DNA from: a virus
Direction: 5' to 3' (one strand)
Length of the DNA stretch: 64,000 nt
IMG/VR virus record: IMGVR_UViG_3300046169_000069
The notes beneath the pieces were generated by a model. It did not search any database and was not told where the DNA came from. It worked only from the letters and a program-made list of their open reading frames with translations. The position numbers were made by a program, and so were the translations under genes. Shown piece by piece: positions 30,801 to 59,991 of this stretch. How positions within the stretch are numbered: the stretch's first letter is position 1; every line of letters begins with the position of its first letter.

Positions 30801-33800
30801 AGACTGCAGTGAAGTGTCTTCTGTTGTACGACTAGTTGCTTCTGTCGCGACAGTTGCATCAACGTATGACTTAGTTGCAGCGTCTTGTGCGGCAGTTGGA
30901 TCAGCCATATCAGTAATCTTGTTACCAGACATGTCAACTTCAGCACTCATCTCAATGTTAGATGAACCAGAAGATGTGCTTACACCAGCAACCTGTGATT
31001 GTAAACCTGAAATCGCAGTCGCGTTTGCAGATACGTCAGAAGTTAATACCGCTTCCGCACCTTGTGCACGTAGTGACTCATCAGCAATGTCTTGAGCAAG
31101 TGACGCTTCGACCGTAGTCGCACGTGTTGTCTCATCGGCAATTGCCTGAGCATTAACACCCTCAGCAGCTGTTGCACGTGATGTTTCAGCAGCAATGTCT
31201 GACGCAAGACCTGTTTCTGCAGATGTTGCACGGGCAACCTCAGCAGCAAGATCAGACGTTAGTACACCTTCTGCCGATAGAGCACGAGACAGTTCAGTAG
31301 ACAAACCAGCACTCAAATCAGAGTCAGCATTTGCACGAGCAGTTGCTTCATCTGTGATTGCCTGTTGACGTGCCGCCACTTCCGCATTAATTGCATTAGT
31401 GTTAGCAGTAACACTTGCACTGTTAGATGTGATCAACGATTGGATATCACTATCCGCGTTCTCGAATGCCGCAACCACTTCAACGATTGTGTCTAGTGAT
31501 TCACCAGCACCGTTCAAGATTGCGTCAACACGATCACTTACTGTCTGAGTAGTTGCATCAACATATGCCTTATTAGCGGCATCGGCTGAATCTACTGGAG
31601 CAGCAACATTGATAACACTATTATCCATCATGTCTAGGTCTGATAGTACTTGCAGATGATCAACAGATGAGTTGAATCCGATAGTACCAGTTCCGTCACC
31701 GAAGTATAGACCACCGTTGAATGTCGCTAGACCGTCAACTGTGATAGATCCGTCAGTGAAGTTTGCACCTAGATGGTTTGCAAGTTGAGTTTCTGCAGCT
31801 GTTGCACGAGCAGTTTCTACCGCGATATCCGCAGCAAGACCTGCTTCTACTGCTTCTGCACGTACTTTCTCAGTTACGACAGCGGCAGCGTTTGCAGCCT
31901 CTGCAGTCTGAGCACGTGTAGATTCTGCGTCAATGTTAGACTGAAGTGTGTTCTCAGCACCAGTCGCACGAGCAGTTTCTGCTGCAATTGATACTTCTAG
32001 ACCACTCTTATCAGAAGTTTGTGTACCAGACAATGTATCAATCTGAGACTGTAGACTTGCGTCACCCGCAGTGCGAGCAGAAGACTCAGTGTTGATATTT
32101 GACTGTAGTACTGCTTCTGCAGCAAGAGCACGTACTTCTTCAACACCTTCTGCAGTTTGTGCACGTAGCACCTCTGCGTCTAGTTCTGAGTGTACTTCGT
32201 TGATCGCTTCAACAACAGATGTTGCAGTTGTTTCTAGTGAAGGAACACCACCCTGTCCTGTTATTTTAACAGATCCTGCTTCTATTTGGTAAATACCAAT
32301 ACCAGTATCAGAACTTAATACAAATATGACACCATTGTCTTGAGTCGTAAATGGTAAAGATACTGTTGTAGGTACTGATCCCGCAGAAACTGTTGTTGAC
32401 GCATATACTGTAGCTGAAGACTGTAGATTTCCGGCGACAACAGTAATAGTCATGTCACTAGCAGCCTGCAGAACAGTCATGCTAAGTGTATAACTTTCAC
32501 CAACAACCAATGGAGTTGGTCCACTGTATGAGGTATAGTTAGATCCAATATATCCCCATATACCGCCACCAAGACCTGTCGAGTCTGGAGAAGGTACAGA
32601 GAATTTTATTTCTTGATCTGGACCCCAAGTAGTCGCACCTGCGGCTTGATCCCAGTACTGAGCACTGATATTAGTGACGTTTCTGACGTAGTTAGTCTCT
32701 TCACCCTTAACAAACGTGTCTAGATCAGAGATTGTCGAAGCGTTTGTAGTGATCAACGTCTGTAGATCGCCATCCGCACCTTCAAACGCAGCAACAACTT
32801 CTTGCAACGTGTCTAGTGTTTCTGGTGATGTACCAACGATGGCATCCAACTGAGACTGTAGACCAGACTCAACGCCAGTTGCACGAGCAACTTCCGCATC
32901 AACTGCAGCTTTGTACAGTTGCATCACCTGCAATACGTGCCGCCGCTTCATCTGAGTCACCAGCGATACGTGCCGCTGATTCCACTGAAACGTCACCACT
33001 TGCAGCGATGGTTAGGTTATCAATCTGAGTTTGTAGACTTGCGTCACCAGCAACACGAGCCGCTTGTTCTGCACTGTCCGCGTCTTCTAGATTTGATGTC
33101 AAAGTCTCAACAACATCTAGACGGTTAGAGTTAGACATTGCTGTCAACGCGCCAGAGTTATTGACGTTCTGAACCTGAACTTTCAGTTCTTCGGTCTTGC
33201 CTTCTAGATAGTTAATACCGTCAGATAGACTTGCGTTAGGTATGATAACTTCTTTGATCTCAACAGCACCGGAAGCGATCGTGAGGTCCAGATCATAAGA
33301 ACCAAGATTGCTAGTGTCCATACTCACAAACGATTCGCTGACTTTGATAGGAATACCTGACAAAGCCGAAGTGTCGTAAATATACAATGAACCAGATGTA
33401 GTACTATTATCATCATCTCCATGTGAAGAGACAACTAACTTACCACCTTCTACATCCAGACTATAACCAAAGTAATCGCTAGCGTTTCCGTCATATGCAT
33501 ATATTGTCTGAATATGACTTCCGTCAGATACGTCAAAGACTTCAACTTTACCTACATCTGACCCTTGTGCACCGTCCCAACCATAAGAACCTACGTATAG
33601 TCGAGTGTCGTCCAACGCAACAGATCTACCGAAGTTGTCCCAATCTTGTGAATCTGGAGACTGTAAAGCGTAAGCCATAGTTCCTGAAGCATACCCATCT
33701 GTATTTTTAGGATAAACATAGACAGCACCTCTACCGTACACGACTCCATTGTTATCATTTCTAGGACCGTAACGAGAACCTACGGCAACATAGTTATCGT

Positions 33801-36800
33801 TGAACGCAGTTCCGTTTGAGAAATGGCCAAAATTGCTTCCATCTTGATCATCGGACCACTGTCCATTAGGCGGCATTATTACAGAAGGTGTTGCCTGAAT
33901 ATCTCTCAGATCAAATATTGCAATGAAACTATTGTAGTTATTACTACCGTAGTAACTGTATCCATTAACTGTCACATATAGATAATCTTCATCGACTTCT
34001 ACTTGACGACCGAACTGAAGGTTATCATTCGAGTAGCTACTATTCGATCTCCAGAAGCTAGGAATCCCAGTAGGATCTAAAATGATAGGTTGACTTGTCA
34101 GATTGTTGATATCGTACAAATAAACTCTACCTGAGTTATCTTGGAAAGTTACGTTGTATGCATCTCTTCCAGTCCAATCTCGGCCCCATTCCCCTACAAT
34201 GATGTAGTTGTGATCGGCAGAACCGGTCACAGACCAACCAAAGTAATTATAAGCAGAAGTGTTTGAAGGTTTCAACACTACAGGATCTGCGCTAAGATCA
34301 TTTAGATCCCAAACATAGACTTCACCTGCGTTAGTCACATTGCCTGGATCTGAGTAATCATATCCAACGACAACTTTATCTCTTATGATTTTCGCGGTTC
34401 TTGGATTACCCATATTAGAAGTAGCACCAATATGACTACCATGACCTTCAGGAGATAAAACCGTTGGTGGTGACAATGGACTGTTCGCATCAAATACTAA
34501 TGCGTGACCACACGGAACGTCGGCGGTTGAAGCAGACACCGTAACGATATACTGATCTTGATAAACCCAACGTGAGACTTCAGTAGGCATATTTGGAACT
34601 GTTAGTCCCGCACCTGCGTGAATCTGATCATCAAGTGTTGCGATCTGTGTCGTATGCGTTGATACGATTGATGTGTTACCAGTGATTAGAGCCTGCAAGT
34701 CATTGTCTGCGTTCTGGAACGTAGATACAACTTCTTGTAGAGTGTCTAGTGTCTCTGGTGAAGTGCCAACGATGTTGTCGATCTGAGATTGCAACGCAGC
34801 ATCACCTGCCGCACGATCAGCAACTTCAGTAGCAATCTGGCCAGAGTGAACATCGATCTGTGCCTGTAGATTAGGTACAGAAGTATCTTCGATGACATCC
34901 AAACGTCCACGAACATCTACAAAGTCTGAATCGTGACCAGCGATGTCAGTTTGGTTTGTTGCGATATCGTCTAGGAACTGCGTGTCAGAACCAGTGATTG
35001 ACTGTAGAGATGTGTTCAACTCGTTGATTGCACCAACAACATCGGTAGCAGCTGTTTCTAGTGCTGGATTTGAAAGAGGATCTAAATCACTCTTCAACTC
35101 GTTGATTGCACCAGATAGAGTCTGACTTGATGTTGATAATGTACTGTTTCCGATTTCACTATGCAACTCGTTAATTGCACCATATATTGTTTTTGCGGTA
35201 GTTCCTACTGTAGTATCTAATTCATTATAATCCGATGAAACCACCTGACCATTTTCTAGAACAGCTGATCCCGTGCGGGTGCTTCTTAGATCATATTCGG
35301 TAAGGAGACTGCCATTGGAACCATAAAATCGAATCGCATCAAATGAGTAATTGTTACCAGTTAAATGTTCATCATAGGCTCGGCCGCCAGGAGCTGGTGA
35401 TATTGTATTACTTGGTATAATATTGTAGTCAGACCCCCAAGTTCCTGTGTGGTTTATTATCTGTTGGGCACCAGTGTTAGTGTGGAGCGGTACTGTCATA
35501 GTATTCCAATAACCAGAACTAAACTGAGCTCCACCGGAACCTAAAGTAATTCTCGTAGGAGATTCAATGCGGTACATAACATTTTCACCGTTTAGAATCT
35601 CTAAAGCATATACCGGATATCCATTTATATTATTAGCAACAGTATTTGGAATTGTAGCATAACTCTGACTATTAGTAAAATATAATGATGTCGTACTGTA
35701 CCCACTAGCGCTTACGGTACTAGAACCGCCACCGAAACTTACCATACCATGTTCTGTTTGATAATATTTCGGAGCTTTTGTTTGAGAAATAATATCTTTT
35801 ATTGATTGAATGTCAGAATCATTTCCACTGATTAAAGTTTGCAGGTCATGATCAGCATTCTCATATGCAGATACAAGTTCTTGTAGAGTGTCTAGAGTTT
35901 CTGGAGACGTTCCTACAATAGTGTCGATCTGTGACTGTAAACTCGCAATATCGCCGTCGTTTGAGGTGATTTGAGTTTGTAAGTTATTATCTGCGTTTTG
36001 GCGAGATAAAGTTTCACCAGAAGTATACTGTTCGAAGTATGCCACGTGTGCCGCATTTGCACTGTCATAGATTGATGACTGTTCTGCGTTAGCCGCAGCG
36101 TAGATCGCAGTCTGTTCTGCGTTAGCCGAATCATAAAGTGCAATCTGTTCCGCTTTATCAGAATCGTAACGTTGATCTTGTGCAAGCAGTTTGAAGTCAA
36201 TATTTGCTTCAACAGTTTGCAGATCTTGTACGATTGTAGATGAACCAGTAACCGCTTCAACAGCAGTAAGAAGTTCTTCTTTCTTAGCGTTCAAGTAGTT
36301 GACCGCAGCAGTTAGGTCGTCATTTGGATTGAATGTCTCTGTGACACTTAGGGTTACAGTTCCTGTTGCAGATACTGCAGGAAGTTTGTTTCCATAACCA
36401 AAACCAGTTTCTTCGATCATTACTGGATGTTGAAGAGAAACTCCCTCAACTCCATTGACAAGATCGGTGAAGTTATTCAGATCATGAATGTATATGGTTC
36501 CAGTATCTTCTGAAGTTCCACCAGACATTTTCATGTTTCGAGAAGTGATAATTAACTTATCATTTTGGATCTGAATAGAGGAAGGATAATCCCACCCATC
36601 TATATTAGATATTCCGCCCCAAGCGTTAGGAGCGAACTGATACACTCTCACATTGGAGAAATTATAACCAGAAAGTTCGCCACCTTTAAATTGTGCCTCA
36701 ATCCAACCAAAACTGCCAGGAATCCATGAATAATTATTACCACTACTTGGGAAGTTGTTGTTGAATAAGTCGTCTTTAGTGACCATTACAACTTCTTCTG

Positions 36801-39800
36801 TGCTTCCAAACACTAACCAGTCATCACTAACTGCAAGCTTTCGGTCCGAATTGTATAGGTAATATGCGTTAGAGTATCTTCTGTAAACCGAAGAATACAT
36901 CATACTGTTGTCGGTGCGGTAAAAAGGAGCAGCATTTAAGTTAGATGCGTCCCACACCATCAATCGGCCGTAATTATCGTGGACGTAGTATGATCCGTAA
37001 TTCTGTACAGCAGCAATCATAGTGTTACTTACAACGAAGTTGGACGCCACTACACCACCGTCATAGATAGAATCTTGCAAAGTAGTCACATAAGAAAGGT
37101 CTGTTCTATTATAGACAAATATTCTATCCTGGCCTGTTAAAGCGCCAACAAACACGTGAGTGTCGTTCCAATCTACTCTACATGCGAAACCATCGTAATC
37201 GTTTGACCCTAATGTTGGATAATTTACACCAGTTGGTAAGTCTTCGCTTGTTGTTTCAATGTAGATAGCGTTTCCAGAAACAAGTGATGGAACATCATAT
37301 ATTCTTGCACTGCCAACTACAGTATCAGTACTTACGTTACCGATAAGAACTTTAGAACCGCCATCATATCGAATTTGAGCATAATCATAAACAGTGCGTA
37401 GATCAGCATGTACTTCTGCGATAGGTAGTGAAGATGAATCTATCGTAGCAAGTTCGTAAACTAGGAAGTAAATCTCACGAGCATCAAGGCTGGTGTTGTC
37501 CAACCTAGCCATAACTATAACATGGTCACGAGTTATGAAGTTACCTTCTGGTTTAGAATTGTATGCCGACGGCAATACTACTCTTGTGCCTAATCCAGTC
37601 TGAACCGATTGGTTTTCAACATACTCTGCAGAAGTGTAGACAAAGAATTCGTCGTCACCTTCGATAACAGTGTAGTACTGATCACCAACATCTTTATTGT
37701 AAGTAATAGAAGTTAGTTCTTGTGGTAGAGCAATGTGACCTGTACCCATACGACCACGAATTTCGTTTTGTAATAGGTTTGTGTCTGCAAAAGAACCACT
37801 TACAGATGATGTGAAATAATTGTAATCGGAGTCGTGATCTACAATAAACTGTGCTTGAGACGCATTGACCGCATCTTCAAACCCTTGACGTTCAGCGTTT
37901 ACCGAAGCTTCGAATGCAGTACGATCTGCATTTACCTGATCAATATCAGCTTGAACTGCATCACGGTGTGCTTGACGATCCGCGTTTACAGATGCTTCGA
38001 ATGCAGTACGATCTGCATCTACCGCAACGATTGCAGCCGCGTTAGTCGCAATGTTTGCAGTGTTAGTTGCAACGTCTGCCGCGATTGAAGCGATGTCAGC
38101 ATCATTTGACTGGATTGCTGCCAAGTTTGCTTCTAGATCTGCACGTAGTTCCTGACGCTTAGCTTCCAAGTAGTTGATCGAGTTGCCTAGACCGGATGCT
38201 GGAATGATGGTGTCAGTAATTGTTTGCGTAACCGTTTCTGCTGGCGAGATCGCAATAAGACGACCGAAATTGCCAGAAGCTGTACTAGAATCACCTCGAA
38301 CTAAACGCTCAGGCGGTTGATCCATATTTGTTAGGTCATAAACAAACATAGCAGTACCGGAAGAACCAGCTACAATCAATCGATTGCTTTCTTCATGCAT
38401 CTGGTATGGGAAAATCCCTAGGTTGTTTTCTGGCGGTGTTATTACTAACGGAGGCAATAATAAATTATTCGCATCATAGATGAAAATAAGACCAACCGAA
38501 CTCGTAATTCCAGGCGTATTGCCCTCAAGTGTGCCTACAATTAATCTTGTGTCTGTTAATGCTATAGAGTATCCAAACTGAAGGTTATTTGTTGCATATT
38601 CTGCAGGCGGATATAACTTAGTATGTGCTTCATTCAGGTTATCTGGGTTAAACAAATAAACAGAACCGTGATTTGGTCCATCTATATCATCTCCATACGC
38701 ACCTACAGCAATACGTGTAGAAGAAACTTCGAACGAACCAGTAAGTTCGCCATTAGCCCAAGAGATAACGTCGGAGTTTTGATCGCCAGAAGTTAATTCA
38801 TGTCCATTGATCAAATGACCATCACTTTGTCGGATATCTAAAACCCAAAGTGCATCAACACCACTATATCTAAATGCACAAAGTTTATCGCCAAATACTC
38901 TCAGTTTATAATCGACTATACTAGCAATATTATATGTACTAGTTCTTAAGTTACTTCCAGATTCCGATAAAGGTTGTTTCCATATAGTATCCGTTCCTGA
39001 AGTTTCGTGCGCATAAATGTAATCTTCTGAAACAGCAAATCCATTTATATTTTGGTTTTCCGCAGTAGCATAAGATTTGGAAGCCGAAGTTATGCCCAGT
39101 ACTAAATCTGCCCATTCGTATCTGTACACTAGATGTCTATTGACATTCCAATTAATGAATAGAGCTTCACTGTTGGCGTCAATATGATATATGTAGTATC
39201 CGCTAAAGTAAACTTTTGCAACCGGAGTAGATGAATCGACACTATCATACACATAGACGTTATGATTATCAGCAGTCGCATAGAACTGACGGCCCGCATA
39301 CTCTACATCAAAGGTAATTGTCTCACCGATGTCTGGAGTAATTAGAGGAACGCCTTCAGCACCAATTGTTGTCTGTAGTGCAGCTAGTGTACCAGTGTTT
39401 GTGTTGATTAGACCCTGTAGAGTGCTGTCTGCATTTGAGTATGCAGTCACGATCTCTTGTAGAGTGTCTAGTGTCTCTGGAGAAGTACCAATGATTGCGT
39501 CTAACTGTGCTTGTAGTGCCGCGTCACCTGTGACGATTGCACTTGCGTTAGCCTGTTCTGCCAACTGAGCACGGACAACTTCTGCGTCTAGATTAGACTG
39601 TACTGCATTAACTTCATCTACTGTTGCACCACTTGCGGTTCGAGCTGCATTTTCTGCAACGATGTCATCGATCTGTGTTTGTAGACCCGAGTCAGCAGTT
39701 GTACGGTTTGAGATTTCTGTATTAAGTGCAGTAGACTGTGCAGAGATTAGAGTTGCTTGTGATGTCTGTGAAGATTCACGAGCAGCAGTTTCTGCAACGA

Positions 39801-42800
39801 TCTTCGCATCTAATGCATTGTCTGCAGAGATACGCGCTTGTGTTTCAGCAGTGTCTGCTGCCGCACGAGCGTTTGATTCGTCAACGATTGCACTTGCGTT
39901 AGTTGCATCACCAGCGATACGTGAAGTTTCTTCTGCAGAGATTGCCGCAACACGTGCGTCTGTTTCTGCCTGAACAGCTGTAGAAGTGGCACTATTGTCC
40001 GCCATTTCAGCGTGTAGTTCGTTGATCGCAGCACCAATGGTTTGTGCAGTAGTGTCTAGATTTGTTAGAACAGTTGAAACGTCGATTACGTCTTCATATA
40101 CTGCAGGCACTTCTTGTGAGGCGACCAAAGAATTGTGTCCGGCACTGACGGCGTAAGTTCTAGTGATTGCACCTGAAGTGGGTGTGAGACCAGTAGTGGA
40201 CTCATTATAGATCTTAACAGTTCCGTTGTCATCATTTTGTAAATAAACTTTACCGTTATCGACATCGACGAACTGTTTTTTGGTTGTGGAAATAGACCGA
40301 CCAAGATAAGATACTCCATTAGCATCCCAAGTCCATTCATGAAGATATGCATAACCTGAGACATGAGTAGTAACATATAGTTTATTATCAGTCATATCTA
40401 CATCAAACCCGTAACCTCGCCAGTAGGTATTCAAGTCGTTACTAGGGATAGTAGTATGTAACTCAAAAGTTTGACCTGTTACGTAGTTTTTTAAATTTAC
40501 TCTTTCATAGTTATTATATCCATCTTTGCGCTGAGACCATAAAATGTAATCTCCGCGAATATCAAATCCCCATACATTACCATTCCCTATGAAGGTATCT
40601 TGATTGTTGTATTGGGAAGTTGGGGATATCATATGTACACTGGATGGATTTGCACCATCTGTTACGTCCCAGATAGATATTCTGCCTTCTTCATAAGACC
40701 AAGTGTATCCTATAGCAATCTTAGTTCCGTCCTCGTTCATCTTTAGATAAACTTCTGTAGAACCTATGTTAGGTAGACCGTTATAAATTAGATTTGTATT
40801 AGAGTAAACTTCATTTCCTGCTAAATCGTATACTTTGAATCCTTTTTCAAAAGAAACAAATACATGCGTGTCGTTAGAAACGAGATTATAACCGAACTTT
40901 TGTATCGTTCCGCTAGATTCTAACACATAAGTGTAGTCTTCTGGGCCTGGGTTTGTTGATAGATCGTAGTGATAAACTCTACCAGTACCAGCGGCAGGGA
41001 TTGCGTCTGGCGCACTAACCCACAAATGGTTTCCTGTTTTCGCCACAGAAGCACCGAACGAACCCTGAGATCCGGATGGACTTGTGATGGTGTGGGTTAT
41101 ATTACCGGAGTATAAAATATCCCCCGTATATACACTAACAGAACCGGACTTAGCAACAGCCATTTCTGCTGGTGTTTCTGCAGTTACTAGGTTTTGACCA
41201 ACAACTGTGCTTACTTCGTGACCTAGGTATGATTCTAGAGATGAAATATCAGATGAGTTTGCAACCATCAACGCCTGTAGATCACCGTCAGCACTTTCGA
41301 ATGCAGCTACGATCTCTTGTAGCGTATCCAAACTTTCTGGAGATGAACCCAAGATCGCATCAATCTGTGACTGAATGCTTGATAGATCTAAGTTTGCTAG
41401 GTCCGAAGACTTCGCTAGTTCTACCCACTGACCAGCGTGTGCAAAGTATGCAGCACCCTCTGCGTGGACGTGTGCAAACATACCGTGATTTGCAGATGCG
41501 TCTGGTAGATCTGCCAATGTAGAGAACAATGGGTGTGTTGCACCAGTTGCTTCGACTTGGTTAATCTGATTTTGTAGATCTGTTTCTGCTGCAGTAGCAC
41601 GTGCAGTTTCTGCAGAGATTGCAGATGCATTTGCTTGTTCAGCTGATGTTGCGCGAGCTGCTTCTGCGTCTACCGCTGCCTGTACTGTTGCATCACCTGC
41701 AACACGAGCAGTTGCTTCTGCAGTGATTGCTGCTTCACGTGCTTCTGCTTCAGCTTCATCTCCAGCAACACGGGCTGCAGTTTCGGTTGAAATTGCACTT
41801 GTCTTCGCTGCGTTATTAGATGATACTGTTGCGCTAAGTGAATCGATTGCACTTTGTAGATCTGAGTCAGCATCTTCACGTTGTTGCTTTTCTGCAGCGT
41901 CAAAGAATGTGCGGTCAGAGACTTCTTGTGTCAATGATGCATTTACTGCTGTAATAGTAGAAGAGTTGCCTATGATTAGACCTGTAAGATCACTATCCGC
42001 ACCTTCAAACGCCGCCACAACTTCTTGAATTGTGTCTAGTGTTTCCGGAGATGTTCCAACGATTGCGTCTAGTTGTGATTGTAGAGCTGATAGATCTGTA
42101 CCAGTTACAGAGTTTAACTGTGATTGTAGATCGGAGACTGCAGCTGCACGTGTTTGTGCTTCTGCTAGGTCAGCAGCAATACGTGCTGATTGTTCTGCGT
42201 CTACCGCTGCCTGTACTGTTGCATCGCCAGCGATACGTGCTGCAGATTCGTCTGAGTCTGCATCAGCACGAGCACTTGCTTCAGCAACGATAGCCTGCAG
42301 CGTTTGCTTGTTCTGCAGATGTTGCGCGAGCAATTTCCGCATCAATTGCAGCACCACGTGCCGTTGCTTCCGCAGCGACTGCATCAGCGATATCCTGAGA
42401 TACTGCCTCACGTGCGCGTACGACTGTGAAGAATAACTTATTGTCACCTTCAGCAATAACGTCTGTGCTTGTTACTGCGATTGGAGTTGCAGTGACACCG
42501 TCGTATACTTCCCAACGATCTTCTAGTTCGTTCCAACGTAGCTGAACTGCAGGTTCGTCACCACGCATGATACGAATACCTGCGTTAAGTACCGGAGCAC
42601 CTGTAGAAACATTGCTGTTTAGATCGATGATATTGTCAGCGACTTTTAAGGTCTGACTGTCTAGAGTTGTTGTAGTACCCTCGACGGTCAAATTGCCTTC
42701 GATGGTTACATTATCTTCAAAGACTTTATCGCCAGTGATTGTACCGTCTGCATTTAAACTGTCAACATATTCTTTTGTTGCAGCGTCTGAAGCATCTACT

Positions 42801-43816
42801 GGAGCACCGACATTTTTAACTTTGTGTGTTCCCATATCAACAGCACCACCAAACTTAGTTGGTTCGCCGCCGACTGTAGAAATTGTTTCTCCAACAGACA
42901 TTACTAGATCTGACTTCAACTGGACACTTTCGTCGCCAGCGTTTAGATCAATGTTACCACCACCTGTTGCGCCGAACGACAGGTTCTGACCTGCGTCTGC
43001 GTACATAGTGATTGTACCGCTGTTGTCTTCTAGAATCTTAGTACCGTTAATGTACAGAGAGCCTGGACCGATGTATAGATCTTTCCATACGCGATCTGGA
43101 GAACCTAGTGTGTACTCGTTGTCAGCTGATGGAATTAAGTTTCCTGTCCAACCGTCGCTGTCGTTATACGTGAACTGTGACGCTTGTAGTGCGCTAACAG
43201 CGGCACCACGCGTTGCAGATTCAGCAGCAATTGCCGCAGCGTTCGCAAGTTCTGCTGCAGACGCACGAGTAACTTCTGCATCAATGTTCTGTTGTAGAGT
43301 TACGTCTCCTGCGATACGCTGAGTGGTTTCGATGCCGATAGCGGCAGTGTTTGCACTTAACGATGAGGAGTTTGCAGCTAGAAGTGATTGAATGTCACTA
43401 TCTGCACCTTCGAAAGCGGAAACGATCTCGACAAGAGTGTCAAGTGTTTCTGGTGAAGCGCCTACGATGGAGTCAATTTGAGTTTGTAGTGAATCTACTT
43501 CTGCTTGAGTGTCAGCATTAACTCCTAGTGAGTCAATCTGGGTTTGTAGAGATGCAATATCTGAAATACGTGTTGCTGTTTCGGATGCGATTGCAACTGT
43601 GTTACTGTTTACATCTATGAAAATTTGTGAGTCTGAGTCGACGATAGAACTGCCGGAACCAGTGAGTGCACCTTCATCTACTAGAGATGAGACTGCGTCT
43701 GCGATGGCCCCTGCAACTATAGTACCATCAGCTCGGATTATGACGACATCATTGACGGTTAATTCACCTTTTACGTCAACGCCGTTCTGAATCCTAAACT
43801 TTTTGTTAGTATTCAT
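27867..43816 (-). CDS. Giant (~5,300 aa) coiled-coil virion fibre/adhesin with inserted beta-propeller-like and other domains; three track ORFs joined across two frameshifts (~42296, ~32910)
   Basis: Repeat text continues across the breaks (EQANAA|AIVAEASAR; GDATVQ|AAVDAEVAR). Motifs: AE..RA.AAE, SPETLDTLQE.V.AF..ADSD, YadA-neck-like DAA(T/N)K.YVD, FG-GAP-like FG.SV...G.V.VFD. Confidence 0.75.
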
Positions 43817-49907: not shown

Positions 49908-50258
49908 TTACCTCGTGACCGAAGGGTTGACTTTTATCTTACCTTCTAGTATTCTTTCTATAATAGTATGACCGTCTTCATCAACGAAACTGATCTCAAC
50001 ATCATAGACGTATCTACCACGAGTGGATAGGGCATCGGTTTGCAAGTTAGTTAAGGATATTGTAACGATGCCCTCTAAAGGAGGAGTGGGTATTACAGCC
50101 GTGAAGTCAATTGACTCTGTACTTCTGTAAGTTTTTTTCAGTTTGGCGGCCGCTGAATAACCAGTAAGATCTTTCTTAGATCCGTCCGGATTCACTAACT
50201 CTATCTGTAGAGCTAGGTCCGAACCTTGATCAATTGTAAAATCTTCGTAAGTCGCCAT
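49908..50258 (-). CDS. BppU-like baseplate/fibre adaptor protein
   Basis: IDQGSD...DLTGY...A.L.K...G...ISLT..QT..L..GRYVYDVEI......RILEG.I.V.P.VT. Confidence 0.7.
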   Translation of the reverse strand: MATYEDFTIDQGSDLALQIELVNPDGSKKDLTGYSAAAKLKKTYRSTESIDFTAVIPTPPLEGIVTISLTNLQTDALSTRGRYVYDVEISFVDEDGHTIIERILEGKIKVNPSVTR

Positions 50259-50306: not shown

Positions 50307-51011
50307 TTAAACTGCAGAAATGTCGTCAAGAACCATCTCACGAAATTCTTCAGAAGTCTCTGACCAGTCAAATACATAAGAAACGGTAACACGCCAGTCA
50401 TCTGTAGATGCGGCATGATACATTAACTTTTCTGGTTCGTCATAGTGTCCGAAGTATGCAGCCTTACAAGTCCATACTCCTGGCGTGTCTTGACAGCGAA
50501 CAACTTCTTTCGTTTCTGGGTGAATGTAGTCAAAGTAACCAGAACCATCTTCTGAGTAAGAGAAGATAAGATTAAAACCTGGCGCATTTGCATTGTTATG
50601 CCATGAGATATACCCGCCCGGTGGATAGACTGCTGCAAGTGCATTGTGTTTAACAGACAAGAAGTTCATCATCTTGTCGTTTAGATCACGTAGGTGATGA
50701 GTCATGTCACGTTTAAAGATTGGGTCTGCATCTTTTTCAAACATCTTATGTGCGCGGTCAGATAGTTTGAAGTTATATCCAACCATCTCTTCGGGAAATC
50801 CATCATGTCCCTTTCCCATTGCAACGATGTCATTCATGTATCCTTCACCAACGTAGTATGAACGTTGACGAATATGTTCTGCTGCAGTCAAGTGACAGTT
50901 CTTTTCAAAACCCTGCATAGTATGCAATTTGGCATACTGGTCTAAAACCTCTAGCAACTCTGGGTTATTTACCTCTACGTGCTTTAGATATTGGTCGTTT
51001 ACCTGTGTCAT
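50307..51011 (-). CDS. DSBH / 2OG-Fe oxygenase-like protein, paralog of 14007-14654
   Basis: YPPGGYISWHNNANA.GFNLIF...YHAA.T..WRVT.SY. Confidence 0.6.
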   Translation of the reverse strand: MTQVNDQYLKHVEVNNPELLEVLDQYAKLHTMQGFEKNCHLTAAEHIRQRSYYVGEGYMNDIVAMGKGHDGFPEEMVGYNFKLSDRAHKMFEKDADPIFKRDMTHHLRDLNDKMMNFLSVKHNALAAVYPPGGYISWHNNANAPGFNLIFSYSEDGSGYFDYIHPETKEVVRCQDTPGVWTCKAAYFGHYDEPEKLMYHAASTDDWRVTVSYVFDWSETSEEFREMVLDDISAV

Positions 51012-51736
51012 ACGATTGGAGTATCCTTGTTCAACCCAGCCGAGAAGTGTCTTAAAATTACGGGTCCCGTCTCAGGTCGTGTTCTTGCCCAATTGAGGGC
51101 ATTGTAATAATTCCACCTCAAGTCATCATCAAAGATACCAACCTTGAGGTCCTTATACTTTTCTTCCTTCTCAGTTAACCACCAAAGCGAGAACTGATCC
51201 CAAGACTTGAGACTGTCTGCATACCCTTCTGGCCACCAAGAGTCGTTCATCTGTCTGAATGTCAAGTCCCACCAATCGTCCATGAATTCACGTACAATCG
51301 GTTTACTCATATCATACAAACAAACGCCACCGCATAATGTAAACTTCGCCATACCCTCTGGTGTAGAGAAGTCGCGTTCTGCGTAGATGTAATCTCTATC
51401 ATCTGTTAACGCAGAAAACACCACATCGTGGTCTTTCATCTCATCCCAAACTTTTACAATGTCTTCGTGCTCACATTCCATATCAGCATCAATGTACATT
51501 GTCAAGTCATACGGAGACTTTGCCATCCCCCACAACTTCGCACGGTAGTGATCATCACAAAAGATGATATCATCCGCGACTTCGCGACCACGATCATCAA
51601 TAAACCGTTCTTCGGTCACTAAACAAATCTTGCAATCCTCATAGTAATCTCTAATGGATTCGGCAAGATTCAATGCGTACAAATAAAAGTTGCGTTTCTT
51701 AGACGCAACTAACAAAAATCCTTTACTCTTTTCCAC
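51008..51736 (-). CDS. GT-A fold glycosyltransferase (GT8-like)
   Basis: A..LAESIR..., K.W....SPYD.TMYIDAD, GGV.LY, WDQ.SL, WNYY, ILRH. Confidence 0.75.
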   Translation of the reverse strand: MEKSKGFLLVASKKRNFYLYALNLAESIRDYYEDCKICLVTEERFIDDRGREVADDIIFCDDHYRAKLWGMAKSPYDLTMYIDADMECEHEDIVKVWDEMKDHDVVFSALTDDRDYIYAERDFSTPEGMAKFTLCGGVCLYDMSKPIVREFMDDWWDLTFRQMNDSWWPEGYADSLKSWDQFSLWWLTEKEEKYKDLKVGIFDDDLRWNYYNALNWARTRPETGPVILRHFSAGLNKDTPIV

Positions 51737-52185
51737 TGTCTTCGGCCTCTAGTTGTTCTTGCAGAATCATAATTGAGTACATATCTACTTCAATCTTTGA
51801 CTTTGCCCGACGCAGTTTAGCCTTCAACTTGCGGTTCTTAGAGTTCTTAATCTCTTCAACCTCAAACGCTTCTAGTTTGTAGTTGAACAGTTTTTCAAGC
51901 TTACGTGCCTTTTGATGTTCTTCTTCACGTATCTTGTCTTCTTCAGCTTCTGCCTTCTTGCGAACAACACGATTCAGATGTTTCCTTATCAATCGCATCT
52001 TCACCTAGAGAATCAATCACTTCTTTAAAAAGTTCGTTCTCACTACCGTCCTTATCATGACGATGTAAAAACATTTGTTGGCGCGTCACTCTACCAACGT
52101 CATCTTCAAGTTCTAGAATACAGTTTAGTTCTTTCTTTTCGTCTGTTTCCCAGAACGCATTATCCATCCAACGCTTATAACTCAT
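51723..52185 (-). CDS. Hypothetical protein with basic helical C-terminus (two track ORFs joined; frameshift near 51977)
   Basis: MSYKRW...IDKET|NRVVRKK...LFNYKLEAFEVEEIKNSKNRKLKAKLRRAK. Confidence 0.65.
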
Positions 52186-52291: not shown

Positions 52292-55200
52292 TTATGCAAC
52301 ACGTACGTATAATGTATATGTTTCAGTAACCTCTGTAAGCGTATCTGAAATCGTTGCACCCACGTAGTTACCCAAGAAAGATCTTGCATAGTTACCAACG
52401 TAATCTCGAGCATAGTTACCACCAAATGTACGTGAGTAATTACCTGTAAAGTCTCCAACATAGGCAGAGTCACGATTGCGTGAGTATGCACCAGAGTAGG
52501 CCGAGTTACGGACACGAGCGTATGCAGATACACGTACGCGTGAGTAGTTACCTACGAAGTCGCGTGAGTAAGTGCCAGTGTATTCACCAGTAAATGTACG
52601 TGAATAATCACCGACATAGTTGCCACCGAAGTCGCGAGTATATGTGCCAGTGTATTCACCAGCAAAGTCACGGGAGTAGTTACCTACATATTCCCCAGCG
52701 AAGCCGCGTGAGTAGTTGCCCGCATACTGACCAGAGAAGTCGCGAGTATATGTGCCAGTGTATTCACCCGCGAATCCACGAGCATAGTTACCTACGAAGT
52801 CGCCGACAAAGTCACTTGCATAAGCCCCAGTGTATTCACCAGCAAATGTTCTTGCATAGTTACCAGTAAAGTCTCCAGCAAAATCACGTGCATAATTACC
52901 AGCAAATGTTCTTGCATAGTTACCAGTAAATGTGGCATTATATGTTCCCGCATACTCACCAACAAATCCACGTGAGTAAGCACCAGTATATTCACCAACG
53001 AAGTTGTTGTTGTAAGTACCAGTGTATGCGCCTGTGTATTCACCTACGAATGTTCGGTTATAAGTTCCTGCGTATTCGCCAACAAATCCACGTGAATAGT
53101 TACCCGCAAAGTTTCCACCAAAGTCACGTGCGTAGTTTCCTACGTAGTTTCCACCGAAGTCTCCAACAAAATCACCGATAAAGTTACCAGCGAAGTTACG
53201 AGAGTAGTTACCAGTGAATGTGCGTGAGTAGTTGCCTGCAAAATCTCCAGCGAAGTCACGCGAGTAGTTACCAGTGAATGTACGTGAATAGTTACCAGCA
53301 AAGTTTCCTGCAAAGTTAGTCACACGATCACGAGCATATGTTGATGCGCGGTTGCGGATGTATGCAGAAACACGAGTCACGACATATGCAGAGTAACGAG
53401 TACGAGTAGATGTACGAGTATACTCACCAGTAAAGTTACCGGCATATTCACCCGCGAATCCACGAGCATAGTTACCTACAAAGTCACCTGCATAGTTACG
53501 GGCGTAGTTACCGATAAAGTTACCAGCGAAATTTGTTACTCTATCACGAGTGAAGTTACCTATGTAATCAGTAATTCGTGTACGTGCATACGAAGAGTTG
53601 CGATTACGCGTAGATGTACGTGTTGATGTACGAGTAAAGTTACCTGTGTAATCAGTAATTCGTGTACGTGCATAAGCTGAGTAACGTGTGCGTGTTGAAG
53701 TAATTGTCGATACACGTGTGAAGTTGCCTACGTAGTTTGTTACGCGATCACGAGCGTAAGCTGAGTTACGTGTACGAGTATAGTTTGTTGCACGAGTTCT
53801 TGCATAAGCACTGTAACGAGTACGAGTAGATGTGCGCGTAGATGTACGAGTAAAGTCACCAACATAGTTAGTAATACGAGTACGTGAGTAGGCACTGTAA
53901 CGAGTACGTGTTGAAGTACGTGTTGACGTACGAGCATATTCACCTACGAAGTCACCAGCATAGTATCCAGTACGTGTGTAGTTACCTGTATTGGTAAAGG
54001 TCTGAACACGATTACGAGTGAACGCACGAGCGTAGTTACCTGTGTAGTACAATGTACGAGTGTAGTAACCAGTACCTGTACCCGTACGTGTTGACGTACG
54101 GCTGTAATTGCCTTCATATGAGAACGGACGACTACGAGTATAGTTTCCTACAAAATCACCAGTAAAGTTGGTTACACGATCACGTGAGTAGTTTCCAGCG
54201 TATGAGAACGCACGACTTCGATTATACGTAGAAGTACGGGTGCGCGTATAGTCGCGAGAGTAGTTTCCAGCGTAAGAGAATGCACGACTGCGAGTATAAT
54301 CCTCTGCGGATACACGAGTTCGGGCATAGTCCCCAACAAAGTTGCCGGTAAAAGAACCAGCCGTGCCTTGAGTAACCAACCCATAGTAATAATTTTGAAA
54401 AAGTTGCATTTGGAGAGTGCCTCTTGAATAGGTCACTCCATTGTGCGTAATTGAAGTTGCGTTGGCGTTAGTGCTGGTCGCAATAGTCGTAGCGTTAATA
54501 ACAACAGAAGCTCCCGCAGTACTCTTTAACCAATATGTGACATATTGGGCGTACTGAGTAGTACTTCCCGAATTAACAGAAGTTCGGGTTGATGTGCGTG
54601 CGTAGTTGCCTACATACGAAGTACCGCCCGTAACTCCAGTATAGTTTCCTACAAAGTTTCCTGTAAAAGAACCGCCAGAACCACTGTAAGTAACGCCGTA
54701 ACGAGTTTCCAGCCCAAAGTTCTCTCGGAAAGTGCCTCGATTATACGTGACACCACCATTGGTTATTGATGTCATGGTGGTTCCTTGCGCTATATAGCGA
54801 CAGAAGAACCGCCCACATAAACAATTACAGTACTGGATTCATTATCAATAACCCAACCATCTGTCACTGTGTTGAAAGGACTCTCCGAATAATCGTCAGT
54901 AGCACCACCAGAACCTGTAGAAACGCGAGTAGAAGTTCGGGTGAAATCTGTACTAGTTGGAGTTCCAGTGTAGTTACCTAAATAAGATCCCGTTCGGTTT
55001 CGAGTAAAGTTTCTTGAATAGTTTCCGCCGAAGTTGCGCGAATAATTACCCAAATAAGATCCAGTACGAGTACGGCCGTAGTTACCTATAAAGTTGCCTG
55101 CGTAGTTGACATCTGGTTCGCGAGTATAGTTACCCAAATAAGATCCGGTTCGTGTACGCGCATAGTTACCTACGAAGTCACCTGCGTAGTATAGAGTACG

Positions 55201-57697
55201 AGTATAGGCTGGGGTACGTGCATAGTCTGCAGCATAGTTACGTGCATAGTTGCCAGTGAAGTCGCCGACATAGTACAGTGTACGCTGATAGTTCAAAGTA
55301 CGTGTTGAAGTACGTGTTGATGTGCGTGAATAGTTTCCTACAAAATCACCAGCATAGTTACCAGCAAAACCACGAGAATAGTTGCCTACAAAGTCGCCAG
55401 TAAATGTAGTCGCGTAATTACCTACGAAATCACCACCGTAGTTGCCTGCGAATCCTCGAGCATAGTTGCCTACAAAGTCGCCTACATAGTCTCCGACATA
55501 ATTTCGGGCGTAGTTACCAATAAAGTTACCAGCGAATGTGGTTGTATAGTTGCCTGTGTAGTTACCTGCAAAGTCACCAGCGTATCCACGAGCATAGTTA
55601 CCTACGAAATCTCCGGTGAATACTGTAGTGTAGTTACCAACGAAATCGCCACCGTAGTTGCCCACAAATGTACGTGCATAGTTTCCTACGAAATCTCCGG
55701 TGAATACTGTTGTATAATTGCCAACAAAGTTACCAGCGTAGTTAGTAACACGGTCACGTGTGTATGCAGACGCACGAGTACGTGTTGACGTACGTGCATA
55801 AGCTGAGTAACGTGTTCTCGCAGAAGTACGAGTAGAAACACGAGCATAGTTACCTACGTAGTTTCCTGCAAATCCGCGTGAGTAGTTACCTACGAAGTTA
55901 CGCGAATAGTTGCCTTGGAAGTTACGTGAGTAGTTTCCAATAAAGTTGCCAGCAAAATCGGTCACACGATCGCGAACATATGAAGAAACACGGCCACGAG
56001 TAAACTCACCCGTGAAGTTAGTCACACGATTGCGTGTGTAAGTAGAAACACGGGCACGAGCATAAGCATTTGCAAAGTTAGTGACACGGTCGCGAGTGTA
56101 GTTAGTGATGCGGGTTCGTGTGTAATCTGCAGAGTATGCTGATGTGCGTGTACGAGTTGAAGTTCTTGTATAAGCTGAGTTACGAGTACGTGAGTATGTT
56201 CCGGCATAAGCTGATACACGGTTTCGTGAATATGTACCAGAGTATGTACCTGTGTATGAAGAAACACGAGTACGAGCGTAAGTGCCTGAATAGGCAGAGT
56301 TACGAGTACGTGCATATGTACCTGCATAAGCAGAAACACGACCACGAGTGTATGCAGAAGAACGAGAACGCGTGAACGTACCAGTAAAGTTCTGTACGCG
56401 ATTACGTGTGTAAGTAGAAACACGTGCGCGTGAGTAAGTTCCCGCAAAGTAACCAGTAAATGCAGTTAGTCTATTACGAGAATATGTAGAGATACGGTTA
56501 CGAGCATACGCGCCAGAGTACGCAGATGTGCGTGTGCGCGAATATGTTCCAACGTATGTTGAGACACGGGTTCTCGCATAAGTGTCTGAATACGCGGATG
56601 TACGAGTTCGTGAGTAGGTTCCTGTATAAGAGGAAACACGTGTACGAGTGTAATCAGCCGAGTAAGTAGAAACACGATTGCGAATATAAGTCCCTTCATA
56701 TGAAGATGGTCGCGTACGAGTGTACTCTCCGACGAAATCTCGAGAATAGTTACCTACGAAATCTCTATTATATGTTCCTGTGTAGTCTCCAACAAAGGTG
56801 CGGGAGAATGTATCTACACTATTACGTGTGTATGTTGAAACTCTATCGCGAGTGTAAGCCGAAATACGCGTACGTGCGTATGATGAGTTACGTGTGCGAG
56901 AGTATGAACTATTTACAATAGTACGTCGGGTGTTAGTTGCATCACCAACAACAGACCATGTTCCAGGCAGTGTTGGTACACCTTGCGCAGCTGAACGGAA
57001 CTGATAAGATCCGATCGCACCGGCCGTCGCACGGAGGGATTTGACACGTTGACCAATAGTATATTTGATCTGATCATCCGACATTTCTTTGAATCCGTCA
57101 AAGTTGGATGACCCATCGTAACAAATAGCAACGGGACGCACTGCGTTAACCACAGGCATCGTTACACGTTGATAGATGTTGTAATTTGTTACTGTACCAT
57201 CACCGTGTGTGTCTGAGAAGACATTTGCGAGGAAGACCGTATAGTCTGCGCCAGGTGATGTACTAGAAAGTTTGAATGTACCGACATAGTCATTCTGGAC
57301 CATGTTACTGAGTACACGACTTGCAAGATTATCCAAATCTGGATCTACCATTTCGTAGAAGCCTGGATTTGGGGCCTGAGTCATAATAACCCACAGGACG
57401 AACAAAATCGGCACCAGTTTCATCTGCAACACCGCCCACCTGACGTAGAGGTGTGGTTACAGTTGTAGATGTGATATTAGTAATTGGGTGAGTGCCCGCA
57501 GATTCATTAAAATACGCGTCCGTAAATGAACCAATATTAACATCACCAGTTAAACTGATATCTCCGACTTCACCAGCAGATGCATCTGCTAATGCTTGTC
57601 CCACCGCATAAGAAAGATAGTTCTCTTCTAGCGGTGTAAATTCCTGTAGGTCACCATTAGTATTTTTAATTTTTAGTGGGATACTAGATGCTGACAC
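52292..57697 (-). CDS. ~1,800-aa self-complementary tetrapeptide-repeat protein (putative beta-ribbon fibre with two tip domains); three track ORFs joined across frameshifts near 57372 and 54792
   Basis: Late promoter upstream, globular N-domain, two 648-codon arms of [YFRS]-x-[RGST]-x units flanking a 2-domain loop, and a short C-terminal strand. Confidence 0.8.
52355..54298 (-). repeat. C-terminal arm: 160 tetrapeptide units plus 4 dipeptides
   Basis: YTRS RAFS ... FLGN YVGA; 1944 nt. Confidence 0.9.
54961..56904 (-). repeat. N-terminal arm: 160 tetrapeptide units plus 4 dipeptides (12-nt periodic coding repeat)
   Basis: YSRT RNSS YART ... YLGN YTGT; 1944 nt. Confidence 0.9.
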
Positions 57698-57746: not shown

Positions 57747-57754
57747 TATTTATA
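57747..57754 (-). promoter_or_regulatory. T4-type late promoter for the repeat-hairpin gene (second copy at 57802-57809)
   Basis: TATAAATA. Confidence 0.75.
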
Positions 57755-57816: not shown

Positions 57817-58284
57817 TTACTGTGGTGGAGTTGGCCAGTTAATGTCAGTTAAATTCTCAATTCCGTCAAGATTTTCTGTAATATCACGCAACTCTTGACG
57901 ATAACCTGCCCATGCATTCTTCATATCGAGTGATAGTGGGGCGTCTGGAATTTGCGTCCAATCTGTTCTCATCAACTCATTGTTGCGAGTCTGACGAATT
58001 TCGATATGTAAAGATTGTAAATTGATCTTCCAAGAATGACCGTCACGGTAAGCGTGTTCGTTCGGAGGTTCGCCAATATCAACGAAAGACTCTGACGATC
58101 TGTCATAAAAATTTCTGCGGACGAACTCTAATGGGGTAAGAGAGCCCATGCGTTCATCGCCAATCAATTCGAATCTACTAGACCCGTCTGGTTGTAAACC
58201 TAATTCAACTTTTAAAGTTGCCGGTTCTATCTGTAGGTTCATAATTGAACCGTTTGATTCATTAATATGTGCTAACCAACTCAT
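57817..58284 (-). CDS. Tail fibre assembly chaperone-like protein
   Basis: IR..RN..L..TDWTQ.PDAPL......W..YRQ.LRDIT......I.WP.PP. Confidence 0.85.
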   Translation of the reverse strand: MSWLAHINESNGSIMNLQIEPATLKVELGLQPDGSSRFELIGDERMGSLTPLEFVRRNFYDRSSESFVDIGEPPNEHAYRDGHSWKINLQSLHIEIRQTRNNELMRTDWTQIPDAPLSLDMKNAWAGYRQELRDITENLDGIENLTDINWPTPPQ

Positions 58285-59109: not shown

Positions 59110-59991
59110 TTAGAACCTTAACATATAATATGTGTAATTAATTGTACGGGCATAGTTAAAAGTTAATCCATATTCATCTTGTGCCGTTATTAAAACGCCG
59201 TTATTTGTTCTGGTGTAGTTTATAAATGACGTTCTGAAGTAAATATCTATAACAGATCTATTGGTTAATGTCCACCCAAAACTTCTAAGATCTAGTTCGT
59301 ATGTTGCGCTTGCAACATTTGCGGGGATAGTTATGCCGACTGTGCCTATCTCATTAACTAAACTTATTACTCTTTGACCACCGCCCCAGACTTCATTGCC
59401 ATTAGCATTTAATATTTGTATTCCATAGTCTCCCTGAGACACATCGACAATCGTTGTGGGGTCTCCTAAATCTACAGGGTTAATTTCGCTCTGTCTGGAT
59501 ACAGTATAAAACTTGTTTGAAGACATTGATGTCGAAGTCTGAGAACCTCTGGTGTAGATATACTCACCAACTTCAACTTGAATCGCCCCTTCGGATATCA
59601 GTCCGTTAAAAACTTCATCGCCGACCCAATTGATGACAACAGTTTTAACTCCGTCGCTTGAGTAGTCGGCTGGTTCATACCAATAGGATGATCCACCACC
59701 ACCTCCACCACCACTAGTCGTTTCGCCAGTAACTGCATATTGAACAGTTGTGAGGCCAGAAAAAGATTCGGTAGTTTCTCTGGTATACGTCACTCCCCCG
59801 AAACTATATTGAGTATCGGTTGTCGCAATTAAGTCCGTACCAACTTCATCTACGACAATAGATCCATTATATTTTATTGTCGTAGTGTATACCGGCACTG
59901 CGGAACCGCCATCAAATTGATATGTGGTAGTTATCTGCCAATAGTTATCTGTTAACGCAGTCCCGCCACCGATATTATCATCACCGATCAT
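59110..59991 (-). CDS. Putative receptor-binding minor tail protein with two small beta domains
   Basis: Two YW...G...(G)G..YTR..Y.V modules separated by poly-Gly, then GDYGIQI.N.NG. Confidence 0.6.
   Translation of the reverse strand: MIGDDNIGGGTALTDNYWQITTTYQFDGGSAVPVYTTTIKYNGSIVVDEVGTDLIATTDTQYSFGGVTYTRETTESFSGLTTVQYAVTGETTSGGGGGGGSSYWYEPADYSSDGVKTVVINWVGDEVFNGLISEGAIQVEVGEYIYTRGSQTSTSMSSNKFYTVSRQSEINPVDLGDPTTIVDVSQGDYGIQILNANGNEVWGGGQRVISLVNEIGTVGITIPANVASATYELDLRSFGWTLTNRSVIDIYFRTSFINYTRTNNGVLITAQDEYGLTFNYARTINYTYYMLRF

Follow-up and report, generated by a model that had tools for sequence, protein, structure and literature searches.

Cross-strand aromatic pairs and large residues placed over glycine stabilize two-stranded β-sheets without a buried core, as in tryptophan-zipper hairpins and in the effect termed "aromatic rescue of glycine," and thin β-rods such as the central sheet of OspA and staphylococcal SasG are stable single chains even though they lack a conventional hydrophobic core. 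In the needle of the T4 tail fiber protein gp37, the chain runs out and back with approximately 100 residues per arm. Here, we describe a gene at positions 52292 to 57697 (minus strand) of IMG/VR virus record IMGVR_UViG_3300046169_000069, a 64,000-nucleotide stretch of viral DNA that is referred to, at its full length, as the window. An earlier reading, made by a model without database searches (the sequence-only reading), had proposed that the encoded protein carries two arms that are complementary in antiparallel register and that it folds back on itself in the manner of an RNA stem-loop. The results presented here support this interpretation, and each of the refutation tests that it had named turned out in its favor. 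We estimate at roughly 0.7 the probability that the gene encodes a tail fiber made of one 1,800-residue protein, folded back into a β-ribbon whose register is written in its sequence.

The small hairpins and rods differ from the window protein in scale and topology. Tryptophan zippers and glycine rescue concern peptides of 12 to 16 residues or single sites, whereas here the same principle would be applied approximately 160 times with Tyr, Phe, and Arg. OspA and SasG are three-stranded, consist of repeated small domains, measure tens of nanometers, and do not form one global hairpin. The nearest known system is the gp37 needle, which shares its topology with the window protein but not its sequence, metal sites, or scale. 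The gp37 chain travels out to the tip and returns in antiparallel strands, as is proposed here for the window protein. Further likenesses are that receptor binding is located at the turn and that a gene for a dedicated assembly chaperone is close by. However, the gp37 hairpin is part of an otherwise parallel trimer and contains His-coordinated iron, whereas the proposed hairpin would have approximately 640 residues per arm and take up nearly the whole protein. Unlike the architecture proposed here, gp37 has no return of the chain end to the N-terminal domain, no aperiodic unit code, and no bulged domains. No gp37-type sequence similarity was found in Pfam, PHROGs, or 50,697 phage records, and His-x-His iron-binding repeats are absent, with no His among the 1,296 arm residues. 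Chain reversal at the tip, as in gp37, is suggested by sequence covariation and by modeled closure of the chain ends.

Short repeats containing Gly are also found in T4 gp5, which has a triple-stranded β-helix based on the octapeptide VxGxxxxx (PMC3004832) and is likewise a tail protein with a long, thin β-structure. In gp5, three parallel chains intertwine with a fixed period of eight residues, whereas the two halves of the window protein are related in antiparallel order and its unit types follow one another aperiodically. Neither a fixed octapeptide period nor parallel chains without a relation between distant halves were seen here; instead, the halves are related by a unique antiparallel register and by compensated insertions and deletions (indels). 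Literature searches turned up no description of phage C48C1, which carries the closest annotated homolog, of fold-back or antiparallel tail fibers of this kind, or of a phage fiber formed by a two-stranded β-ribbon. Nor did they turn up any fiber in which the whole chain makes a single hairpin with a coded register, compensating indels, and domains as bulges; judged by its sequence relations, such an architecture would be new.

As had been claimed, both arms have 648 residues and parse into 4-residue units. We numbered the N-arm units forwards and the C-arm units backwards and assigned them to three classes, R (Arg- or Ser-initial), G ([FY]xGx), and Y ([FY]xRx). Over the first 134 pairs, Arg- or Ser-initial units stand opposite [FY]xGx in 63/63 cases, exactly as counted before. 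The pairs comprise 36 R-G, 27 G-R, 25 Y-Y, 24 Y/G, and 10 G-G, with R-R and R-Y both at zero. Shifting the register by 1 to 60 units in either direction lowered the share of R units facing G to 47 to 70%, and parallel alignments did not exceed 80% at any offset. When the C-arm units were shuffled in blocks of 4, 6, 8, 12, or 134, no more than 53/63 was reached in 20,000 trials each. Phase-conditioned mutual information peaked once, at 0.69 bits (background, 0.24 ± 0.03), and the register of this peak is the one that places position 1 opposite position 1. All four unit positions contribute to the signal at this register, including the face formed by positions 2 and 4. Mutual information was higher at offsets of ±2 than of ±1 (even above odd), as expected if facing residues share one face of a β-ladder. 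The unique peak at offset zero predicted by the sequence-only reading was therefore borne out by the offset scan, the mutual information, and the block shuffles.

The residues that face each other follow a simple pattern. At position 1, the pairs are Y-Y (52), R-F (27), and F-R (16). Arg at position 3 faces Gly 63 times, Ser 31 times, Asn once, and Arg never, and Thr faces Gly, in agreement with the earlier parse. A gapless antiparallel alignment covers 640 residues and scores 619, compared with 213 for the best parallel alignment, using a scoring matrix that was trained on the window protein itself. This pairing contains 84 aromatic-aromatic, 77 Arg-Gly, 55 aromatic-Arg, 32 Arg-Ser, and 2 Arg-Arg pairs. 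The dipeptide breaks that had been described as mirrored are so: 6-residue spacings occur at the same places in both arms, and the aromatic ladder thereby stays in register. The basic period is 4 residues, and the unit types succeed one another aperiodically, apart from local repeats of 3 and 7 units. The arms are neither copies nor reversals of each other, and no inverted repeat was found between them at the DNA level, where identity to the reverse complement at offset 0 is 31.6%, like that at other even offsets. Taken together, these results confirm that the antiparallel pairing relation is real.

The composition of the arms is equally distinctive. Besides His, they lack Cys, Trp, Met, and Lys altogether, and they contain only 4 Pro. 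The N-arm is rich in Arg and Ser close to the base and rich in FxGx farther out. Where one arm is dense in Arg, the facing arm tends to be poor in it (r = −0.50), and the paired stem is net positive along its entire length, by +6 to +18 per 80 pairs; the stem is a strongly cationic fiber. An 84-nucleotide tandem repeat occurs in each arm, and the two lie at roughly mirrored positions. It should be noted that the inner arm boundaries were chosen by symmetry, whereas the outer boundaries are natural ones.

The pairing relation is conserved in relatives. In the unclassified Kyanoviridae phage C48C1 (156 kb), a homolog of 3,347 residues (P0001), annotated as hypothetical, has the same N and C termini. 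Two metagenomic homologs, P0002 and P0003, have 3,893 and 3,884 residues. For hairpin alignment, the proteins were anchored at their ends and nonrepeat segments were treated as free bulges. This gave 163 unit pairs for the window protein, with 75/76 R units facing G, 255 pairs for C48C1 (111/116), 243 for P0002 (103/108), and 240 for P0003 (108/110). Pairing extends to the tip and includes mirrored dipeptide breaks. Hairpin scores of 165, 217, and 222 compare with 73 ± 8, 103 ± 11, and 106 ± 10, respectively, for block shuffles and with approximately 0 to 3 for the parallel order.

Arm lengths co-vary among the four proteins. Between independent landmarks, N-arm and C-arm unit counts are 134/134, 214/225, 203/208, and 213/215. 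An 11-unit indel in the distal N-arm (55, 66, 55, and 66 units) is mirrored in the part of the C-arm that faces it (34, 45, 34, and 45 units) in the same two proteins. Matching arm lengths and compensated indels, which the sequence-only reading had expected of homologs, are thus seen both in the hairpin alignment and in the unit counts. Globular inserts of 884 to 1,089 residues are present in the C-arm and not in the N-arm. At residues ~2000 to 2100, the C48C1 protein (L001:5012-15055) contains an exact tandem duplication of approximately 75 residues, KTRHRSYLYY...NFSGQY. It adds seven repeat units to the C-arm that have no partner in the N-arm, and it accounts for part of the 214/225 excess. 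The duplication is either an assembly artifact or a fresh duplication that is still uncompensated. In P0002 and P0003, FG-GAP repeats (β-propeller; Pfam E value of 5e-97) were observed at residues ~300 to 700, N-terminal of the arms and inside the base domain or next to it, which means that the base, too, can harbor passenger domains.

A full HMMER scan with the N-terminal domain returned 264 cluster representatives at an E value of ≤1e-3, so the family comprises at least 264 clusters. Approximately 100 members are full length, with sizes between 400 and over 4,000 residues, and have ...ETYTLYVR[VI]A at the C terminus. They share an N-terminal domain of approximately 260 residues, arms with a 4-residue aromatic period, and the conserved C-terminal strand. 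The family has no name in Pfam, PHROGs, or the ESM Atlas, the last of which holds unnamed viral clusters only. Pfam assigned no family to the window protein, and PHROGs gave one weak repeat match to a family of unknown function. Among the 50,697 phage records, C48C1 is the only carrier.

In this family, the first arm unit begins a fixed 20 residues past a conserved GTW, and the last unit lies at a fixed distance from the C-terminal motif. Columns are therefore anchored without an alignment. We calculated mutual information with average product correction (APC) for 91 members, from which the close relatives of the window protein had been excluded. Comparing N-arm column d with C-arm column d' counted from the end, the mean was 0.073 at d = d', 0.05 to 0.07 at offsets of ±2, 0.02 to 0.03 at ±4, and 0.000 ± 0.011 elsewhere. 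A pairing matrix learned from the window protein and C48C1 only was then applied to 89 other members. Their own C-arm was the best partner of the N-arm in 16/89 cases and among the top ten in 41/89, with a median rank of 13 compared with approximately 45 by chance. On average, the cognate arm scored 26.2 bits, noncognate arms 9.9, and the cognate segment read forwards 1.6. A gapless count over 95 members, in which the signal is diluted by phase breaks, gave 35% at offset 0 and at most 24% elsewhere. By eye, the swap of polarity recurs in members whose block orders are quite different, with TRNST-type runs opposite FxGx runs or vice versa. Two members are written in other repeat dialects. P0089 has self-complementary Y[VI]GNPxIx repeats in both arms with palindromic pairing (Pro on Pro and Gly on Ile), and in P0134 (422 residues), seven VRDVNF repeats precede five PQPQNF repeats and a tip domain is absent. 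Judging from these repeats, both dialects appear to obey the same mirror logic.

AlphaFold2 was run on two homologs, P0015 (711 residues, same dialect; full-family alignment) and P0130 (476 residues; homologs covering the N-terminal domain only). In both, the N-terminal domain was modeled at a predicted local distance difference test score (pLDDT) above 90 and the long C-terminal strand at 85 to 98. Spurious helices appeared in the arms of P0130, and the outcome for the arms speaks neither for nor against a ribbon. Residues 1 to 400 and 1641 to 1800 of the intact protein were also modeled as two chains; the score of 0.88, compared with 0.00 for the best of three controls, exceeded the pass mark of the program. 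The pass mark was reached by 58/80 solved complexes and 2/110 mismatched pairs, counts that are rough since our own alignments were used. The runs shared at least 56% of contacts, and the pLDDT of the partner was at least 51. In this model, residues 226 to 237 and 245 to 265 contact the last 24 residues, and the interface stops exactly where the first arm units start. The C-terminal ...TYTLYVRVA strand, which had been suggested to return to the N-terminal domain, was thus placed there by models from two programs. The models support a base unit in which the two chain ends would meet, and they fit fold-back of one chain and a domain swap between chains alike. A Foldseek search with the N-terminal domain against the PDB gave no match. 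β-Prism-like domains next to MACPF/MABP were considered as its fold, and the VIA-align Z scores of no more than 6.7 were middling and insufficient.

Translated literally (table 11), the gene in the window consists of three open reading frames (ORFs) in three frames and not of one. At the first frame break, homologs read GPNPGFYEMVD. At the second, the frame without the extra TA is VAIAQGTTMTSIT, and the TAG is followed by AAGGA and then ATG. The C48C1 homolog is uninterrupted at both sites, with the sequences ...YYENGPNPGFYEMVD... and ...VAMASGTSQTSV.... Contigs of four independent seawater or viral metagenome runs, each from a different study, were aligned to the gene, and in 4/4 runs they are one base shorter at 57371 and two shorter at 54791. 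The nearest virus record (160 kb, sharing 57% of the window's words) has a single uninterrupted ORF of 1,800 residues that is 99.6% identical to the window sequence read through both breaks. Because the four metagenomes and the nearest record lack the extra bases, the natural gene is one ORF of 1,800 codons, and both indels are peculiar to the window record. The single chain assumed by the sequence-only reading therefore stands for the natural gene but not for the window sequence as written. Elsewhere in the window, at 27867-43816 (minus strand), three very long ORFs (27867-32999, 32899-42456, and 42281-43816) overlap end to end and look like another giant gene split by frame slips, which fits the idea of scattered small indels in this record. 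The features of the fiber gene and its surroundings are listed in Table 1.

Table 1. Features of the putative fiber gene and its flanks, in window positions
Feature	Positions	Strand	Remarks
Whole gene	52292..57697	−	1,800 codons in nature; GTG start
ORF 1 of gene	57697-57329	−	122 amino acids
ORF 2 of gene	57432-54790	−	880 amino acids
ORF 3 of gene	54775-52292	−	827 amino acids
Frame break 1	57370..57372	−	One extra base near 57371, in GGCCCCAAATCC
Frame break 2	54790..54792	−	TAG arising from an extra TA in GCTATATAGCG
N-terminal base domain	56905..57697	−	Residues ~1 to 264; conserved in the family; high-confidence models in homologs
N-arm	54961..56904	−	648 residues; 162 four-residue units
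Tandem repeat (84 nucleotides), N-arm	55588..55743	−	Units ~n97 to n110
Tip region	54299..54960	−	220 residues; two related modules of ~65 residues
C-arm	52355..54298	−	648 residues; 162 units; read backwards, complement of the N-arm unit by unit
Tandem repeat (84 nucleotides), C-arm	53545..53734	−	Units ~c100 to c116
C-terminal 20 residues	52295..52354	−	TISDTLTEVTETYTLYVRVA; family signature; modeled as a strand within the N-terminal domain
T4-type late-promoter-like motif	57747..57754	−	TATAAATA, ~50 nucleotides upstream of the GTG start
Upstream gene	57817..58284	−	C-terminal part matches Phage_tail_APC (PF16778), E value 8e-15, above cutoff
Downstream gene	49908..50258	−	L-shaped tail fiber assembly/LtfC-like; phrog_1084 (8e-23), phrog_3304 (2e-16)

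In the architecture that we propose, the N-terminal domain of approximately 264 residues and the last approximately 24 residues (...ETYTLYVRVA) would form one globule, the base, where the ends of the chain come together. From there, approximately 640 outgoing residues of the N-arm would run antiparallel to approximately 640 returning residues of the C-arm, forming a shaft that would measure approximately 200 nm if extended at approximately 0.33 nm per residue. Within each 4-residue unit, the side chains of positions 1 and 3 would share one face of the β-strand, and those of positions 2 and 4 the other. Position 1 would meet position 1 as Tyr-Tyr or as Arg opposite Phe, and position 3 would meet position 3 as Arg over Gly or Ser but never as Arg-Arg, the two kinds of pair alternating along this face; small hydrophobic residues would be found opposite polar ones on the other face. 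The aperiodic order of Arg-type and Gly-type units, along with the mirrored dipeptide breaks, would permit a single register in an otherwise repetitive sequence. At the tip, the turn would bear one small module or two, whose task is presumably to contact the receptor, and the extra globular domains of larger relatives would be bulges of the returning arm. The shaft could consist of one ribbon with two strands or of several hairpins bundled together.

In its most specific form, this proposal makes the protein an analogue of an RNA stem-loop, a one-chain, two-stranded antiparallel β-ribbon of approximately 200 to 340 nm. Its register would be set by an aperiodic 4-residue code (Arg-type units against [FY]xGx, Tyr against Tyr, and never Arg against Arg), and it would be lengthened by compensating duplications in both arms, decorated with bulged domains, and branched at the tip. 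We give this form slightly better than even odds. The two kinds of hairpin share a pairing rule, compensating changes and indels, bulges, possibly a branched tip, and detectability by covariation. RNA stem-loops rely on base pairing, whereas here side chains would pack according to a degenerate rule in which Y units go with Y or G units.

The same fold-back hairpin may also be used three at a time, giving a trimer in which six antiparallel strands form a needle of approximately 200 nm like the tip of T4 gp37. This refines the explanation above and does not oppose it, and we hold it as a tentative possibility. Phage tail fibers are typically trimers and the gp37 needle, in the summary of Bartual et al. 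(2010) provided by PMC9659904, is six-stranded and antiparallel; a tail-assembly-chaperone-like gene is found directly upstream of the fiber gene; and the 2/4 face (Thr, Val, or Ala with Asn, Asp, or Glu), which covaries across the arms, could line a narrow core. Nevertheless, the N-terminal domain and the C-terminal strand were modeled together as a self-contained monomer with pLDDT values above 90, the arms are devoid of His and thus of the metal sites of gp37, and the protein has no sequence link to gp37. Pairing of two or more extended chains, either head to tail or domain-swapped, would put the N-arm on the C-arm of another chain and the C-terminal strand into the N-terminal domain of another chain; it fits the covariation, the compensation data, and the two-chain base model equally well. 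We consider it unlikely, since the tip modules are located precisely at the turn, where a few complementary units clamp each of them from either side, and the extra module of the window phage has a short stem of its own, which would be local pairing within a chain. Moreover, short members such as P0134 have no tip domain but just a switch of repeat type at the midpoint, and a head-to-tail dimer would have attachment domains at both ends.

Folding of each arm by itself, as a parallel trimeric triple β-helix or a β-solenoid of FxGxYxRx octapeptides, would make the mirror relation structurally meaningless. FxGNYxRx runs do recall the VxGxxxxx repeats of the T4 gp5 β-helix (PMC3004832), and AlphaFold2 yielded no arm hairpin. 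However, lone folding would leave the unique register, the matched indels, the co-varying lengths, the mirrored breaks, and the preference for the cognate arm unexplained. Local periods of 3 and 7 units are found within an aperiodic order that has no fixed coil length, and the chain ends were modeled together, so that we regard this alternative as very improbable. Still less credit is due to the idea that complementarity is mimicked by block composition and periodicity or by an old inverted repeat of DNA or RNA. It is true that the arms have complementary block compositions (Arg-rich against Gly-rich) and that class definitions and boundaries were picked by the sequence-only reading. Yet shuffles that preserve blocks down to 4 units never attained the observed value, neighboring offsets of the same phase dropped to 47 to 70%, nucleotide complementarity is absent, and the relation recurs in distant members with another block order. 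The compositional artifact and the inverted repeat were thus tested by shuffles, offsets, and nucleotide comparison and found to be unsupported.

Several observations weigh against a single-chain, fold-back ribbon. The covariation fits pairing within a chain and pairing between chains alike. With the matrix of the window protein, the distant member P0006 scored 88 in the antiparallel and 84 in the parallel direction (Smith-Waterman), and in P0015, parsed by eye, approximately 5/20 polar-initial units are not opposite FxGx. AlphaFold2 placed the arms at pLDDT ~30 to 45, and no structure model reaches them. To our knowledge, no solved structure shows a two-stranded ribbon 200 nm long that lacks a conventional hydrophobic core. 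The literal sequence of the window encodes three ORFs, and presence of the protein in virions is a prediction.

If the fold-back ribbon is correct, it would be an undescribed way to build very long, thin protein fibers, with a single chain zipping onto itself. A register code carried in the sequence would solve the slippage of repetitive β-structures, and the protein would be a rare case of long-range pairing that can be read by the logic of RNA, with covariation, compensating indels, and bulges. Its rules would be simple to test and possibly usable in design. Such a ribbon would represent a new construction principle among fibrous proteins, one on which a large family of fibers of marine phages would rely. 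The family is entirely unannotated and lies in the host recognition module of phages that are common in seawater; it therefore also has a bearing on host finding by abundant marine phages.

The window belongs to a widespread marine T4-like (Kyanoviridae-like) phage, which is common; 20 runs from 19 studies contain at least 70% of its sampled words. A hairpin and a run of T stand before the late-promoter-like motif of the fiber gene. In the window, TATAAATA has 11 matches, all on the minus strand, compared with 2.8 expected, which fits T4-type late promoters ahead of structural genes. The match of the downstream gene to LtfC was below cutoff. Neighbors of the C48C1 homolog are annotated as tail fiber, tail assembly chaperone, and L-shaped tail fiber assembly. 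The late promoter and the location among fiber genes had been taken as signs of a virion appendage, and the motif and the flanking fiber-chaperone-like genes do fit a tail appendage. By these features, the gene belongs to a tail fiber module, lies beside fiber-assembly-chaperone-like genes, and is preceded by a late-promoter-like motif. Directly downstream of it, at 50307-52185 (minus strand), three or four small genes have no match in Pfam or PHROGs, and three hypothetical genes occupy the matching place in C48C1.

Each of the two tip modules has S/R-type units on its N-terminal side and FxGx units on its C-terminal side, and the tip of the C48C1 homolog consists of a single module. An ORF at 59110-59991 (minus strand) contains a GGVTYTRET-type stretch that resembles the GGVTYNRGT/NGVTYSRGT motif of the two tip modules. 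The match is weak and at motif level only, with BLASTP E values of 0.2 to 0.3.

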